Below are positions 42,947 to 60,773 of a stretch of 64,000 nt of DNA, one piece after another. Below the pieces are notes generated by a model. It made no database searches, was not told the origin of the DNA, and was given only the letters and a program-made list of their open reading frames with translations. Position 1 is the stretch's first letter, and every line of letters begins with the position of its first letter. A program made the translations under genes and the position numbers. This stretch comes from a phage. The DNA lies in the sequence record PZ386965.1, one strand, 5' to 3'.

Positions 42947-43252
42947 TTATTTTCCTCGACATTCTTTAATGAAATTTTCTAGATTGGTAGATTCAATAGC
43001 TTTTTTACGAGCTTCAGCGTGTTCTTCTTCAGTTAATCTACGTTTAAACTTGACCCAAACATTATGGTCGAAACCTGTTGTCGCGTATAATAACAGAGCA
43101 CCAACGAATAACAAAAACGGTGATAAAAATACACAACCAGGAACACCATCCATATCGTAAGCCTTTTGTAATACTGCAACAGAAAGAGCTGCGTAAAAAG
43201 GTGATGCAAATATTGTTAAAAGACCAATTCGGTTGGTTTCGCCTAATTTCAT
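42947..43252 (-). CDS. membrane protein
   Basis: Two hydrophobic helices. Confidence 0.5.
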   Translation of the reverse strand: MKLGETNRIGLLTIFASPFYAALSVAVLQKAYDMDGVPGCVFLSPFLLFVGALLLYATTGFDHNVWVKFKRRLTEEEHAEARKKAIESTNLENFIKECRGK

Positions 43253-43267
43253 AATATTCTCCTCATG

Positions 43268-43316
43268 TTTTAATAGGACTACTATAACATAGTCCTATCT
43301 TGTTGTAAACAGTTTT
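43268..43316 (-). promoter_or_regulatory. early promoter / stem-loop cassette (high-identity copy)
   Basis: TAATAGGACTACTATAACATAGTCCTATCTTGTTGTAAAC. Confidence 0.55.
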
Positions 43317-43322
43317 GTGAAG

Positions 43323-44279
43323 TTATTTGAAAGGTTTTACCATATGAAAATTTTGTTTGAAACGCTTGACGTAATCGTCGTGTCCTAAGCTTTGATACAT
43401 ACTTACTACTTTGCCATAGTTCTCCCAGGCATACTCACGGAACCAGCCTGATGTGATTGAAGTACAGACCTTTTCTAATGCCATCATAAAACTATCACGA
43501 GGATGGATTTCAAAGCCATTAGGAATCTGAGAACGTTCTAATGCTAGTACACATGATTCTTCGTATACGCCGGCCAATTTGACCATTTCCGGTAATGATT
43601 CGAACTTCTCGCGTGAGGTCATGACTTCAGAACCATCTTTCATATAAAATGTATACGCTGGACGGTCTGTTAGTGCAATGGCTTCGTGAATAGTATCATG
43701 GTCATACGTATAGATGTCATCTTTAAAGAATGCGCTTTTAGAAGTGTCAAGAACCGGGTGAGCATAGTTCAAGGTTTCTTTCTGGCGTTTCAGCATAATT
43801 TCAGTAAGTTCATCGTCCAGTGTAACACCTTTACCACGAAGATACTGAATATGGTTCATAGTCTTTAAAAAGAATGGATTATTTTTCTTGAAACGATGAG
43901 ACATCTTAATTGCAAGACACATCTCAGGAGTTGCCCAGTAAAACCCGTTCAAACGGTCTTTAGTCAAATTTTTCTTGGCGTATTTTAAAAGGTCATAAGA
44001 AGACGTGAAATCTTCAGGAGTGAGTTCACCGACTAATTCACGGACATTAGTGATTGCCGGAACAATGTATGCTTCAAAATGAGTTTCGCGTCCGTTATGG
44101 AAGCATTTGAAAACTTGGACATCAGGGTTATCTTGGTGAACATATACACCCATCATTTGATTTTTGAATACATTCCAAGAACCTTGGTCCGCAATAAAGT
44201 CCCAATCACTATTTTTGATAGCGCTAGAATCAATAAGGCCGTGATAGTGAAGTGCACGAGAACCAATAACCAACATCAT
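43323..44279 (-). CDS. hypothetical 318-aa protein
   Basis: Long ORF. Confidence 0.6.
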   Translation of the reverse strand: MMLVIGSRALHYHGLIDSSAIKNSDWDFIADQGSWNVFKNQMMGVYVHQDNPDVQVFKCFHNGRETHFEAYIVPAITNVRELVGELTPEDFTSSYDLLKYAKKNLTKDRLNGFYWATPEMCLAIKMSHRFKKNNPFFLKTMNHIQYLRGKGVTLDDELTEIMLKRQKETLNYAHPVLDTSKSAFFKDDIYTYDHDTIHEAIALTDRPAYTFYMKDGSEVMTSREKFESLPEMVKLAGVYEESCVLALERSQIPNGFEIHPRDSFMMALEKVCTSITSGWFREYAWENYGKVVSMYQSLGHDDYVKRFKQNFHMVKPFK

Positions 44280-44304
44280 AATAATTTCCTCGAATTTAGA
44301 TTAC

Positions 44305-44556
44305 TTAAATTTCGCGACATGCGATATTATATTCATCCCAGAGGTCGTCATGTGAAGCCTCTACCAATGGAACGATTGTGCCGTTTATGTCTTCATTATA
44401 AGGGCAAATTGTACAGTGCGCATCTTCGAATCGGATGCCTTTGTGTTCAGATTTTTTATAACGCATATCGAATATCTTTGCAAACTTTTCACGAGTAATA
44501 GTTTTAGCAACTACTTCGGTTCCGATACTTTCGTAATAAATCATTGTAGACTCCAT
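44305..44556 (-). CDS. hypothetical cysteine-containing protein
   Basis: Track ORF. Confidence 0.5.
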   Translation of the reverse strand: MESTMIYYESIGTEVVAKTITREKFAKIFDMRYKKSEHKGIRFEDAHCTICPYNEDINGTIVPLVEASHDDLWDEYNIACREI

Positions 44557-44557
44557 T

Positions 44558-44602
44558 TAATTTGATAGGACTACTATAACATAGCCCTATCTTGTTGTAA
44601 AC
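44558..44602 (-). promoter_or_regulatory. early promoter / stem-loop cassette (high-identity copy)
   Basis: TTGATAGGACTACTATAACATAGCCCTATCTTGTTGTAAAC. Confidence 0.55.
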
Positions 44603-44606
44603 TGTT

Positions 44607-44804
44607 TTAGCAAGAATAACTAGATGATACCCAGCCTTGAACAGTAATACTATTATTTGATAACGAGATTGCGTCCTGGAGATTAAGACCTGCGTTATCT
44701 TCAATCCACAATGTAACTTCTTCACGCTCTTCGGTTGCAATCTGGAACAGGTTTTCTAGGGCAGCTACTGCTGTACGTACAGCACAATCTAATTCACGAG
44801 ACAT
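44607..44804 (-). CDS. small protein, WVSSSxxC C-terminal family member A
   Basis: Ends ...QGWVSSSYSC. Confidence 0.55.
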   Translation of the reverse strand: MSRELDCAVRTAVAALENLFQIATEEREEVTLWIEDNAGLNLQDAISLSNNSITVQGWVSSSYSC

Positions 44805-44813
44805 ATGATTTCC

Positions 44814-45086
44814 TTAACAAGTGTGAGAAGATGCAACCCAACCGCCATCTTCAAGGCTCAAGTTGTAGTCGTATTGGTAAACATCGGCCCATTCAGCATA
44901 ACCGTTTTTTGTACAACGTTCAAGATCGGCTTTAAGATGTCCTGGCGAATGATAGGTTCCACCCATGCCATAAGCTGGATACAAGTCGAATGTTGTGTTT
45001 TGTTTATCAGCAATTTCTTTGGCAGCCTCAATAGCTGCATAGATTTTTGCTACGGCTTCAGCCAGTTCGGTTTGTTCTTTAGACAT
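44814..45086 (-). CDS. small protein, WVSSSxxC C-terminal family member B
   Basis: Ends ...GGWVASSHTC; shares YGxGxTY motif with member C. Confidence 0.6.
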   Translation of the reverse strand: MSKEQTELAEAVAKIYAAIEAAKEIADKQNTTFDLYPAYGMGGTYHSPGHLKADLERCTKNGYAEWADVYQYDYNLSLEDGGWVASSHTC

Positions 45087-45095
45087 AATGATTCC

Positions 45096-45401
45096 TTAGC
45101 ACAACGCAGAAGACGAAACCCAAGCACCTTCAGTAATAACGTAACCATTACCTTCACGCTTAACGTCGCCACCATTATTTTCAATTTCATTTTTCATCCA
45201 CTGGGATACGATTTCACCCTTAGGATAATAAGTACGACCGCTACCATAATCACCTACAGAAAACGATACAGCGTATTGGTCTGCGATCTTTGTTGCTTCT
45301 TCTTCGATACGTTCAGCTTGATTCAGAAGTTTATAAATTGCATCTGAAGCGGATTTGGCATCATTAAACTCTGGTACTTTAATTTCAATAATCTTACTCA
45401 T
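45096..45401 (-). CDS. small protein, WVSSSxxC C-terminal family member C
   Basis: Ends ...GAWVSSSALC. Confidence 0.6.
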   Translation of the reverse strand: MSKIIEIKVPEFNDAKSASDAIYKLLNQAERIEEEATKIADQYAVSFSVGDYGSGRTYYPKGEIVSQWMKNEIENNGGDVKREGNGYVITEGAWVSSSALC

Positions 45402-45757
45402 TTTCTACATTCCTTAATAAAGTTTTCGATTGTTTCATTTTCACGTCTAGCTAGGAGTTCATTATAACTAATCATTTGAGAAGCGTAAACCTTTTTATTT
45501 TTCTTGTTATGGTTTATAAAATCGTAGTAAAAATAGACTACAGTACAAAAGGATGCTATTGATGCAAAGGCTTGGGTATACCGTAAGTCCTGCCATTGGT
45601 CTGTGAATCCACCGGTGTTACCTATAAATCCTAACACAACGCCATCAATAAGAAATCCAACTAATCCAAAGGCAAATCCCATGCCAATACTCATAATAAA
45701 AATTAGAATGTTCTCGCCAAGAGAAGGCCATACGGTTAAGAGTTGAGGCTTTTGCAT
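45398..45757 (-). CDS. membrane protein
   Basis: Multiple hydrophobic helices. Confidence 0.5.
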   Translation of the reverse strand: MQKPQLLTVWPSLGENILIFIMSIGMGFAFGLVGFLIDGVVLGFIGNTGGFTDQWQDLRYTQAFASIASFCTVVYFYYDFINHNKKNKKVYASQMISYNELLARRENETIENFIKECRK

Positions 45758-46131
45758 CTTATTTCCTTAACGAATTCCATAGCTTCTTCATATTCATACT
45801 TTTTAACAGCTTCAACATACTGAGCTTGGGCTTTTGCGCACTGAACTTTCCACTCGCGAACTCGAGCTCTGTGATGACGGCCTTGGTGCCAATATCCTGC
45901 CCAATTAATAGGCATTAATAAAAACGGTACAATAAGTGGTGCGACGAACATTAATGAAAACGCTGCATCAGACGATATAACTTTATTGGAATCTAAAATA
46001 GCTCCTATAATCATAAAGATTAAAAATGCTAAAGCTAAAATAGGGCCAAATAGTACTTCGTTTGGGATTAATTTACGTTTGTATTCGTATGCCCAGGGCT
46101 TAATTGGCATGTACAGGGTTGGCTTTGACAT
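45736..46131 (-). CDS. membrane protein
   Basis: Hydrophobic helices; start uncertain (track start is non-ATG). Confidence 0.45.
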   Translation of the reverse strand: MSKPTLYMPIKPWAYEYKRKLIPNEVLFGPILALAFLIFMIIGAILDSNKVISSDAAFSLMFVAPLIVPFLLMPINWAGYWHQGRHHRARVREWKVQCAKAQAQYVEAVKKYEYEEAMEFVKEIRCKSLNS

Positions 46132-46696
46132 ATTCTCTACATTCCATAATAAATTGCTCAAGGATTAAATTGTTAGTGAAATTAGGACTAACAACCATAG
46201 TTTCATAAAGCGCATCAATAGCACTTAAAGCATCAACTCTTTTAAGCAAAGGCTTGCCTTCATACATAGTTTCAGAATCGATGATTAACGTAAAGTAATA
46301 TTTTTTATTATCGACTAGAACTTCTGTATCGATATAAAACATATTAGACCTCAGAAGCTTATCTCTAAAACCATAATAATCTTCTGAACGTTCGCTGATA
46401 TATTCCCATTCAGTGTTTAAACAACAAACAGACCATGTAGGAGCAACGAAATCAGTGAATCTAATATCATGGTCTGCAACTAGTTTAGCAATAGCTCCGA
46501 TATCATGAATCATAATACCTGGGGCTAATAAAGATTTTCGGCGATTTGCGTATTCAGTTGTCTCATAAGAAGCTGACCAGTACCATTTACGTCCAGTTGC
46601 AACATATCGTAATGAATCAACTAAAGACGTAGGTGGATTTACCTTATCTCGGAACTCTTCGAACATTGAGTCAATATCATTATTTTGGTTTCGCAT
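46100..46696 (-). CDS. hypothetical protein
   Basis: ATG with AAAGGAG RBS. Confidence 0.55.
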   Translation of the reverse strand: MRNQNNDIDSMFEEFRDKVNPPTSLVDSLRYVATGRKWYWSASYETTEYANRRKSLLAPGIMIHDIGAIAKLVADHDIRFTDFVAPTWSVCCLNTEWEYISERSEDYYGFRDKLLRSNMFYIDTEVLVDNKKYYFTLIIDSETMYEGKPLLKRVDALSAIDALYETMVVSPNFTNNLILEQFIMECREYVKANPVHAN

Positions 46697-46745
46697 GTTA
46701 ACTCCTTTATTATCCAAAAGGAGGACCGGAGTCCTCCGTATTATT

Positions 46746-58799: not shown

Positions 58800-60773
58800 A
58801 TGGCAAACACTCCTGTAAATTATCAATTAACCCGAACAGCGAATGCTATTCCCGAGATTTTTATCGGGGGCACATTTGCCGAAATCAAACAAAACATTAT
58901 CGAATGGCTCCACGGGCAGAATGAATTTCTTGATTATGATTTTGAAGGTTCACGCTTAAACGTATTGTGCGACCTTTTAGCATATAACACTCTTTACATC
59001 CAACAGTTCAGTAATAGTGCAGTGTATGAAAGTTTTATGCGTACGGCAAACTTGCGTAGTTCTGTTGTACAAGCGGCTCAAGATAACGGATATCTGCCTT
59101 CATCTAAATCAGCAGCACAAACAGAAATTATGCTCACATGTACGGATGCATTAAATAGAAACTATATCACCATTCCACGTGGCACTCGTTTCTTAGCATA
59201 CGCTAAAGATACTTCTGTTAACCCGTATAACTTTGTTTCTACTGAAGATGTCATTGTAGTTAAAGACAAAAATAATCAATATTTCCCACGTCTTCGATTA
59301 GCTCAGGGTCGTATTGTTCGCACTGAATTAACATTTGATAAATTAAAACCTATCATTATTCGTGATAAGAACATTGACCGTAATTTGGTTAAGTTGTATG
59401 TTGACGGGGCAGAATGGATTAACTGGACTCGTAAGTCGATGGTTCACGCCGGTTCTACATCAACAATCTATTATATGCGTGAAACTGTTGATGGTAACAC
59501 CGAATTTTATTTTGGTGAAGGCGAAATCTCTATTAACACATCAGAGGGTGCGTTAACATCTAACTATATTGGTGGCCTTAAACCTGTTCAGGGTTCTAAA
59601 ATCGTAATTGAGTATATTTCTACTAATGGTGCAGATGCTAACGGAGCTGTAGGATTTTCTTATGCTGATACATTAGCTAATATCACGGTAATCGATATTA
59701 ACGAGAACCCTAGCAATAACCCAGACTTTGTTGGGGCTGACGGTGGTGGTGACCCTGAAGATATTGAACGTATCCGCGAATTAGGCACAATTAAACGCGA
59801 AACTCAACAACGTTGTGTAACCGCTTCCGACTATGACACATTCGTTTCTGAGCGGTTTGGTTCTATTATTCAAGCAGTTCAAACATTCACAGATTCATCT
59901 AAACCAGGGTACGCATATATTGCCGCTAAGCCTAAATCTGGATTGTATTTGACTTCTGTCCAACGTGATGATATCAAAAATTATTTGAATGATTATAACT
60001 TAGGGACTATTACACCTGTTGTTATTTCGCCTGATTATTTGTTTATCAAAATGAATATCAAAGTTACATACGCGTTGAATAAACTTCAAGAATCAGAGCA
60101 ATACCTTGAAGGACAGATTATTAATAAAATTGACCGTTATTATATCGAAGATGTAGAAATTTTTAACTCATCGTTTGCAAAATCTAAAATGCTAACTTAT
60201 GTCGATGATGCAGATATTTCTATTATTGGTTCTTCGGCTACTATTCAAATGGTTCGCGAAGTACAGAACTTTTATAAAACGCCTGAGGCCGGTATTAAAT
60301 ACAATAATCAGATTAAAGATAGATCGATGGAATCTAATATATTCTCGTTTGATTCACACAGACCTAATCCAGAAAATGCAAACGAAACTATTAAATACGG
60401 CGTTCGCATAGTATCTTCTGACCGTAATGACCGTGGCATAGGTCAAGTTATTATTGGTCCATTTGCAGACGGTGATGTTGTTGAAAACGAAAATATACAA
60501 CCTTATACAGGTAATGATTTTAATAAACTTGCTGTTACTGACGGACGAAACAAATACTATTCAATTGGTGAAGTGAATTATCCTGCCGATTCGATTTATT
60601 GGAACATTGCTAAAATTGACCTCACTTCAGACCGTTTTGAAGTTCAAACAATTGAACTTTATTCCGACCCTGCAGATGATATTATTTTTACAAAGGATGG
60701 TTCTTTAATCGTATTTGAAAATGACTTACGTCCTCAGTACTTAACTATAGATTTGGAGCCTATTTCACAATGA
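58800..60773 (+). CDS. 6: baseplate wedge protein gp6
   Basis: 657 aa from MANTPVNYQL; T4 order. Confidence 0.9.
   Translation: MANTPVNYQLTRTANAIPEIFIGGTFAEIKQNIIEWLHGQNEFLDYDFEGSRLNVLCDLLAYNTLYIQQFSNSAVYESFMRTANLRSSVVQAAQDNGYLPSSKSAAQTEIMLTCTDALNRNYITIPRGTRFLAYAKDTSVNPYNFVSTEDVIVVKDKNNQYFPRLRLAQGRIVRTELTFDKLKPIIIRDKNIDRNLVKLYVDGAEWINWTRKSMVHAGSTSTIYYMRETVDGNTEFYFGEGEISINTSEGALTSNYIGGLKPVQGSKIVIEYISTNGADANGAVGFSYADTLANITVIDINENPSNNPDFVGADGGGDPEDIERIRELGTIKRETQQRCVTASDYDTFVSERFGSIIQAVQTFTDSSKPGYAYIAAKPKSGLYLTSVQRDDIKNYLNDYNLGTITPVVISPDYLFIKMNIKVTYALNKLQESEQYLEGQIINKIDRYYIEDVEIFNSSFAKSKMLTYVDDADISIIGSSATIQMVREVQNFYKTPEAGIKYNNQIKDRSMESNIFSFDSHRPNPENANETIKYGVRIVSSDRNDRGIGQVIIGPFADGDVVENENIQPYTGNDFNKLAVTDGRNKYYSIGEVNYPADSIYWNIAKIDLTSDRFEVQTIELYSDPADDIIFTKDGSLIVFENDLRPQYLTIDLEPISQ

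Follow-up and report, generated by a model that had tools for sequence, protein, structure and literature searches.

Why should three adjacent and otherwise divergent small phage proteins all end in the same short tail, each with cysteine as its final residue? The question is raised by positions 44607–45401 of a 64,000-nucleotide stretch of phage DNA (sequence record PZ386965.1; hereafter the window, meaning the whole stretch analysed), where three consecutive open reading frames (ORFs), denoted members A, B and C, terminate in QGWVSSSYSC, GGWVASSHTC and GAWVSSSALC, respectively, each directly before the stop codon. We find that all three belong to a family of small phage proteins defined by this tail, and that the family genes form a conserved module with a gene for a DUF7277-DUF7275 protein, which carries a motif of the type seen in polymerase-β-type nucleotidyltransferases (NTases). 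The interpretation we tentatively favour, at not quite an even chance, is a functional partnership in which the small proteins engage this putative enzyme through the tail, probably as its substrates.

A family of small proteins defined by a C-terminal cysteine tail

The window derives from a T4-type Mosigvirus, RB69/Shf125875-like, and is 97–98% identical to many records over positions 44300–46200. The three ORFs all lie on the minus strand. Member A (44607–44804; 65 residues) is of a short type that lacks the YGxG hairpin, and matches phrog_4882 (E = 1.1e-36); member B (44814–45086; 90 residues) is of the YGMGGTY type and member C (45096–45401; 101 residues) of the YGSGRTYYP type, both of these matching phrog_899 (E = 4.8e-19 and 1.8e-22, respectively). 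The coordinates, lengths and tails reported in a first-pass annotation of the window are all reproduced here, as are the internal motifs that it had described for the two longer proteins (YGMGGTYHSPG in member B and YGSGRTYYPKG in member C).

When all six frames of the 64-kb window were scanned, matches to W[VLMI][SA]SS..C-stop were confined to the ends of these three ORFs, which also make up three of the four Cys-ending ORFs among the 161 of at least 60 residues. BLASTP aligns members B and C with E = 2e-6 and members A and C with E = 2e-3, the A–C similarity being weak. As judged from their sequences, A, B and C are homologous, diverged tandem paralogues, and the earlier description of divergent small proteins sharing a conserved tail thus corresponds to a real paralogous family. 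The first-pass annotation had itself raised the concern that the motif might come from a single repeated DNA segment translated out of frame. We reject such an origin: no DNA repeat was found in 44550–45450, and the serine region of the tail is encoded by different codons in the three genes (TCA TCT AGT, GCA TCT TCT and TCG TCT TCT), so that the tail is conserved at the level of the protein. The C-to-B and B-to-A junctions have the form TG(C/T) TAA GGA...ATG, in which the stop codon of one gene overlaps the Shine–Dalgarno sequence, or ribosome-binding site (RBS), of the next; the TAA of member B, for instance, overlaps the Shine–Dalgarno sequence of member A.

Conservation of the tail extends to distant homologues from other phages, the lack of which the first-pass annotation had named as grounds for abandoning its proposal. 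In a set of 200 family sequences, the C-terminal residue is exactly Cys in 188, and these 188 have Trp at position −7 in 186 cases, Ser at −4 in 187 and Ser at −3 in 186, with Ser, Ala or Pro at −5; the sequences that do not end in Cys are frameshifted or truncated copies, or have one extra residue after the Cys. The spacing between the Ser pair and the Cys varies from zero to two residues. At the sequence level, the family is defined by a C-terminal W-x-(S/A/P)-S-S-(x0–2)-Cys tail that forms the end of the protein, a definition under which all three window ORFs fall. A second motif, (D/A)YG(S/M)G(R/G)TYYP, is present in most family members and missing in type A as well as in a fourth type, type D (about 75 residues), in which the W..SS.C motif occurs twice, as an internal W.SS.CYGE and as a W..SSC tail. 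Since the tail is kept in types A and D, both of which are without the YGxGxTYY hairpin, it is the universal element of the family.

Family proteins range from about 65 to 135 residues and are acidic, with a median isoelectric point of 4.4; in more than half of them the terminal Cys is the only one. Their N-termini (MSKIIEIKVPEF..., MSKEQTELAE... and MSRELDCAV...) are not hydrophobic and have no signal-like stretch, as judged by eye without a predictor, and the small proteins are probably cytoplasmic.

Distribution and database status of the family

In a tblastn search of a phage collection, genes resembling member C came up in 398 phage records and genes resembling member A in 252, with host genera including Escherichia, Shigella, Klebsiella, Enterobacter, Aeromonas, Serratia, Yersinia and others. 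Searched with a profile, 1.84 billion representatives yielded 671 clusters (50% identity) at E ≤ 1e-3; among the matches listed, all are 68–175 residues long and have the domain at the very C-terminus. When 185,579 bacterial and archaeal genomes were scanned, a single marginal match (11 residues, E = 3e-4) was obtained, from which we take the family to be essentially phage-restricted.

Both phrog_899 and phrog_4882 are annotated as 'unknown function', and searches of the small proteins with Pfam, NCBIfam and PADLOC gave nothing above threshold; sub-threshold matches were to Peptidase_S78_2 (E = 0.0036, 17.8 bits, cut-off 24) and, weakly, to E217_Gp32. In a PDB profile search, residues 647–704 of lacto-N-biose phosphorylase (PDB 2zus/3wfz; DYGKGRGVY...AWSSSNPEC) align with the two family motifs, which occur there in the correct order; the match is marginal (E = 0.066) and was set aside, the resemblance being probably due to chance or to local structural (hairpin) convergence. 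In T4, tk.1 (60346–60534; 62 residues) matches the family profile weakly (E = 0.007) over the helix and the SFxxxxYGxxxTYY part; it lacks a Cys tail and is perhaps a distant or degenerate relative.

Public labels in this region are unreliable (ESCO10, vB_Eco_F31, P0207), with the e.3 homologue described as a 'sulfurtransferase' and a DUF7275 homologue as a 'prohead assembly scaffold protein'. The label 'inhibitor of prohead protease' (T4 Inh) carried by a C-type homologue was also rejected: T4 Inh has no such tail and is unrelated, and the label stems from ESCO10, in which the product names are shifted against the genes. Searches of the literature for the DUFs, the PHROGs, the RB69 ORF names and the Cys-tail motif found nothing relevant.

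Linkage to a DUF7277-DUF7275 gene

Further along the minus strand, at 43323–44279, the window encodes a 318-residue protein with DUF7277 and DUF7275 domains (Pfam E = 1.8e-78 and 3.3e-27). The pairing of this gene with the Cys-tail genes holds in both directions of search. Loci seeded with the small proteins came from a jumbo-phage contig of 371 kb and two others related to it (L006–L008), and 28 more came from IMG/VR, where identities fell as low as 31%; in all 31 of the family-seeded loci with a usable downstream flank (the contig-truncated L035 was left out), a DUF7275 homologue lies 0.3–2 kb downstream on the same strand, after one to four family genes.

For the enzyme-seeded sample, the flanks of 13 diverse DUF7275 loci, out of 734 phage records, were scanned, and clear family ORFs adjoin the enzyme gene in seven of them, from other phage lineages. 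These are Pseudomonas phage M5.1 (Otagovirus), E. coli phage nieznany (Phapecoctavirus; three copies), Acinetobacter phage AM101 (two copies), Ralstonia jumbo phage RsoM2USA (two copies), Shewanella phage Thanatos-1, Stenotrophomonas phage IME-SM1, in which the order is reversed and the small gene lies downstream of the enzyme gene, and Acinetobacter phage W16, in which both tails end in Ser or Asp instead of Cys. The pairing in Pseudoalteromonas phage H101, where the ORF ends WYESRC, is doubtful, and next to the enzymes that are shortest and diverge most (those of Vibrio phages K412 and VH7D and of Streptomyces, Gordonia and Mycobacterium phages) no family ORFs were found.

Counts of the two genes by genus in the phage collection are nearly equal (Aeromonas 57/59, Enterobacter 34/36, Klebsiella 32/35, Shigella 17/18), and the complete T4 genome has neither the Cys-tail family nor a DUF7275 gene, with e.3, e.4 and e.5 kept. 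All-against-all clustering of the ORFs around the enzyme gene left only the enzyme and the Cys-tail proteins as common across lineages, with one to five divergent paralogues per genome alongside one enzyme gene. The Cys-tail genes and the DUF7277-DUF7275 gene are a conserved module, the linkage of which is tight and independent of lineage.

The 318-residue enzyme-like protein

The DUF7275 family comprises 2201 clusters, all of them hypothetical; both families are catalogued as function-unknown only, and the module is undescribed as far as our searches reach. In a 33-sequence alignment of the enzyme (A4), residues G6, S7, D25, D27 and E69 are invariant, and G6, S7, D25 and D27 are still invariant when the most divergent members are added (A5). 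The pattern hG[GS]...DxD...E is the signature of polymerase-β-type NTases, and from this motif we infer that the 318-residue protein may have NTase activity. Homologues are labelled 'nucleotidyltransferase' in two GenBank records from independent annotators. Only one of the 33 members gives a match to Pfam Polbeta, and this is weak (E = 0.098).

The C-terminal invariants in the same 33 sequences include K125, H128, R165, E168, H174, H194, D195 and H198, together with E240, E241, C243, E248, R249, K270, C272 and R281. The H...HD..H...EE pattern within this part is reminiscent of metal-dependent hydrolases, although an HD-like reading of it is speculation. Cys272 lies in the segment KVC(272)TSITSGWFRE of enzymes that have a Cys-tail neighbour, whereas the divergent class without such neighbours reads K/RTITSLTK; this correlation is confounded, because the neighbour-less class differs at many other positions.

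Predicted structure of member C

AlphaFold2, run on member C with a 34-sequence alignment, produced a confident model (predicted local distance difference test score, pLDDT, 89.7; predicted template modelling score, pTM, 0.74). The model comprises a long N-terminal helix (residues 15–43), the YGSGRTYY hairpin, a short helix, three strands and a helical turn formed by SSAL. The last strand holds W-V-S of the tail and the final Cys is modelled at lower confidence; in this compact arrangement the conserved hairpin and the tail share one β-sheet. No match to the member C model was found among solved folds, and the small proteins would appear, on the strength of this prediction, to have a fold without relatives.

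A proposed role for the tail and alternative explanations

The first-pass annotation had suggested that the tail is a recognition or modification tag. The general idea is made plausible by the linked enzyme-like gene, whereas the specific chemistries that it had offered as examples (lipidation, cyclisation or a protease site) are without support, as described below. Many phage lineages keep a gene with an NTase-type motif in linkage with the family, which makes it reasonable to propose a dedicated partner enzyme. In the partnership that we favour, the common tail would dock each paralogue into the DUF7277-DUF7275 enzyme, which would then covalently modify or tether the tail. Polymerase-β-type NTases usually transfer a nucleoside monophosphate to hydroxyl groups, so the Ser-Ser pair would be the simplest acceptor, and nucleotide transfer to an invariant tail serine is the chemically simplest guess. 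The terminal Cys would probably act in pairs, either with Cys272 of the enzyme or with a second copy of the motif, an idea that arises from the duplication of W..SS.C within type D proteins, and the bodies of the paralogues, being divergent, would direct each to a separate target in the infected cell. Extended in this way, the module could be a phage protein-modification system, in which the NTase recognises the universal tail on small acidic effectors and a covalent change, candidates for which are a Ser-nucleotide adduct, a Ser-Cys crosslink and a thiol-linked conjugate, switches them on or targets them during infection; we regard this fuller scheme as a possibility on the doubtful side.

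Several observations weigh against the proposed partnership. In the member C model, W-V-S is a β-strand of the fold and not a free peptide, and since it lies in the sheet the tail could be structural or part of an intrinsic site. A few family members have one residue beyond the Cys. In Acinetobacter phage W16, both paralogues (positions 2372–2560 and 2560–2826 in locus L041) lack the terminal Cys, ending WSASSENS and WYASND where the AM101 equivalents end WSPSSETC and WYNSSESC, and the W16 enzyme keeps all of its conserved motifs despite this loss in both partners. Frameshifted, tail-less copies are present for member C in the reference RB69 (RB69ORF139c, 71 residues) and for member B in mar005P1 (75 residues), so the family genes can be dispensed with, at any rate in propagated stocks. 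A short motif is the basis of the NTase assignment, since no significant profile link of the enzyme to any Pfam or NCBIfam family was found, PDB profile searches with the full-length and N-terminal enzyme alignments were empty, and hhalign comparisons with T4 nrdC.11 (an RlaP-like NTase; probability 0.1) and with an HD phosphatase were not significant; a single-sequence AlphaFold2 model of the 318-residue protein (pLDDT 40) was unusable. Finally, adjacency in phage accessory regions can mean co-mobility and not function, and in the window it could partly reflect cassette mobility, because the 318-residue gene and an 83-residue neighbour have their own promoter and stem-loops on both sides (see below).

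The same gene linkage would fit small proteins that are not substrates of the DUF7275 enzyme but its subunits or regulators, for example interchangeable subunits that confer specificity or inhibit it, with the terminal Cys pairing with Cys272 or sharing a metal ion with it. The occurrence of Cys272 in enzymes with Cys-tail neighbours and its absence from the divergent neighbour-less class agree with such a role, as do the doubled W..SS.C of type D, which suggests that the Cys works pairwise, and the one to five divergent paralogues per genome beside a single enzyme. The Cys272 correlation is, however, confounded by the divergence between enzyme classes, and W16 retains Cys272 though both of its partners have lost their Cys; we consider such a non-substrate role to be fairly unlikely. 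If adjacency instead reflected a shared accessory island, the small proteins could be autonomous binders, sponges or decoys of a host molecule, with an intrinsic ligand- or metal-binding site. The conserved Tyr, Gly, Thr, Tyr, Trp, Ser, Ser and Cys might form such a site, with hairpin and tail in one sheet of a confident model; the proteins, which are strongly acidic, come from a phage-restricted family that occurs mostly in large lytic phages, the jumbo-phage module lies among Gad2-like, RNA ligase and polynucleotide kinase (PNK) genes, and the frameshifted RB69 and mar005P1 copies are as would be expected for dispensable accessory genes. Autonomous action nevertheless leaves unexplained the pairing across unrelated lineages and gene orders (reversed in IME-SM1), and no similarity of the small proteins to known sponges or anti-defence families was found, so that we judge it unlikely.

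The position of the tail serines, at −3 and −4 before a terminal Cys, resembles what is generally known of the precursor ends that give rise to aminovinyl-cysteine (AviCys) and lanthionine structures. A maturation like that of ribosomally synthesised and post-translationally modified peptides (RiPPs) can therefore be envisaged, in which the enzyme activates a Ser to dehydroalanine and the Cys adds to it to form a lanthionine- or AviCys-like ring, or in which the Cys is turned into a small product on a carrier. Several divergent 'precursors' do adjoin one enzyme, the invariant His and Cys residues of which could hold a Zn ion. This is very unlikely in our estimation, as no LanB/C/M/KC/L, LanD, YcaO, radical-SAM, protease or exporter family is represented in the nine proteins scanned in 42947–46717, and a conserved 'core' lying partly in a folded domain is the opposite of what is typical of RiPPs; in the type D tail, Ser directly precedes Cys (SSC), which leaves too little room for the usual rings. 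With no lanthipeptide, protease or cyclase family among the same nine proteins, the cyclisation and protease sites suggested in the first-pass annotation are likewise without support. That annotation had further proposed the adjacent membrane proteins as partners, and a lipidation or membrane-anchor tag working with them would at least have these e.3-like and e.4-like proteins (45398–46161; homologues of T4 e.3 and e.4) directly upstream in the window. We give scarcely any credence to this explanation: T4 keeps e.3 and e.4 without the family or the enzyme, so they are not obligate partners, and they are missing from distant loci in which the family and its pairing with the enzyme persist. The small proteins are, moreover, acidic, with N-termini that by eye are not hydrophobic, no lipobox, and a Cys that is the very last residue rather than part of a CaaX sequence.

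Promoter elements and neighbouring genes

The three-gene locus occupies the position of T4 e.2, flanked on one side by the nudE/e region and on the other by homologues of T4 e.3, e.4, e.5 and e.6. Between the small-protein genes and the 318-residue gene sits a phrog_3723 gene of 83 residues (44305–44556, minus strand), which is found in many T-even-like loci and not in distant ones; its membership of the module is uncertain. The pair formed by the 83-residue and 318-residue genes is bracketed by two near-identical elements of approximately 45 nucleotides, ACAGTTTACAACAAGATAGG(G/A)CTATGTTATAGTAGTCCTAT, each consisting of a T4-early-type promoter and a stem-loop. One of these, identified in a promoter scan at 44568–44606 (minus strand), lies directly 3′ of the member A stop codon and probably starts a transcription unit of the two genes; the second copy, at 43270–43313 (minus strand), lies directly 3′ of the 318-residue gene. 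In this they are similar to the promoter-early/stem-loop cassettes of T4-type hyperplastic regions.

Four neighbouring genes, all on the minus strand (42947–43252, 45398–45757, 45736–46161 and 46100–46717), have a C-terminal motif in common, in the forms ENFIKECRGK, ENFIKECRK, EFVKEIRCKSLNS and QFIMECREY, and T4 e.3, e.4 and e.5 show the same motif (EFVIDCRKIK, KFVKESRCKSQS and KFVKECREY). The end of the e.3-like gene, AAG GAA TGT AGA AAA TGA, also encodes the RBS and start codon of member C, and part of this shared motif may be a matter of dual coding. In the 371-kb metagenomic phage contig (L006; 105–16249), the module is located beside a Gad2-like gene, a T4-type RNA ligase 1, a PNK/phosphatase, a DNA ligase and two metallophosphatases, a gene context that suggests RNA repair or counter-defence.

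Significance of the module

Among the hundreds of small genes of no known role that large lytic phages carry, three become, through this analysis, part of a defined and testable module, which combines a universal C-terminal tag, a predicted fold without relatives and an enzyme-like partner, and which is present in hundreds of phage genomes of several families. Were the enzyme to modify the tail, as in the partnership we favour, the module would represent a new post-translational chemistry and a new tag–enzyme pair, which might serve as a tool; two sizeable families of unknown role (PHROG 899/4882 and DUF7275/7277) would thereby gain a function, and a C-terminal tag and its enzyme would be widespread in large lytic phages of Proteobacteria. 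If the small proteins act alone as binders, they might prove to be new factors for host takeover or anti-defence.

Comparison with known systems

The window proteins belong clearly to phrog_899 and phrog_4882 and to Pfam DUF7275 (PF23940) and DUF7277 (PF23942), entries that give no function and in which we found neither the Cys tail nor the association of the two families mentioned. Several better-characterised systems were considered and set aside. The small proteins do not show the β-grasp fold and C-terminal Gly-Gly of ubiquitin-like or ThiS/MoaD sulfur carriers; a lipoprotein or CaaX substrate does not fit a protein with no lipobox and Cys as its last residue; and the module is not of the NTase toxin–antitoxin kind (MenAT, AbiE, MNT-HEPN), given the lack of PADLOC and Pfam matches and its near-absence from bacterial genomes.

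RlaP (PF10127; for example T4 nrdC.11), an RNA-repair NTase of phages and bacteria, shares with the window enzyme a polymerase-β-type GS/DxD motif and a common occurrence in large phages, sometimes near RNA ligase and PNK genes (PMC7824862; PMC12776372). It differs in acting on RNA 3′ ends and in having no Cys-tail partner, and none of 33 DUF7275 members matches PF10127. AviCys and lanthipeptide precursors of the epidermin and cypemycin type share with the family, at the level of the motif, a Ser at −3/−4 before a terminal Cys, as well as precursor-like genes lying by one enzyme; the window proteins differ from them in having a folded domain, a C-terminus that is conserved rather than hypervariable, and lytic phages as hosts.

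A likeness by analogy exists to GlnD with the PII proteins (GlnB/GlnK) and to MntA-HepT, in which an NTase of the polymerase-β fold nucleotidylylates small partner proteins. In the window module, too, an enzyme with an NTase-type motif is encoded with small partner proteins, sometimes as several paralogues, and this enzyme has a second conserved domain in which His, Asp and Glu are abundant. The module belongs to neither of these families: we found no similarity to them in sequence or profile, and the fold of the small proteins is neither that of PII nor that of HEPN. The site of modification would also be distinct: the acceptors in GlnD-PII and MntA-HepT are tyrosines in loops, whereas the candidate acceptor in the window proteins is the C-terminal Ser-Ser...Cys tail.

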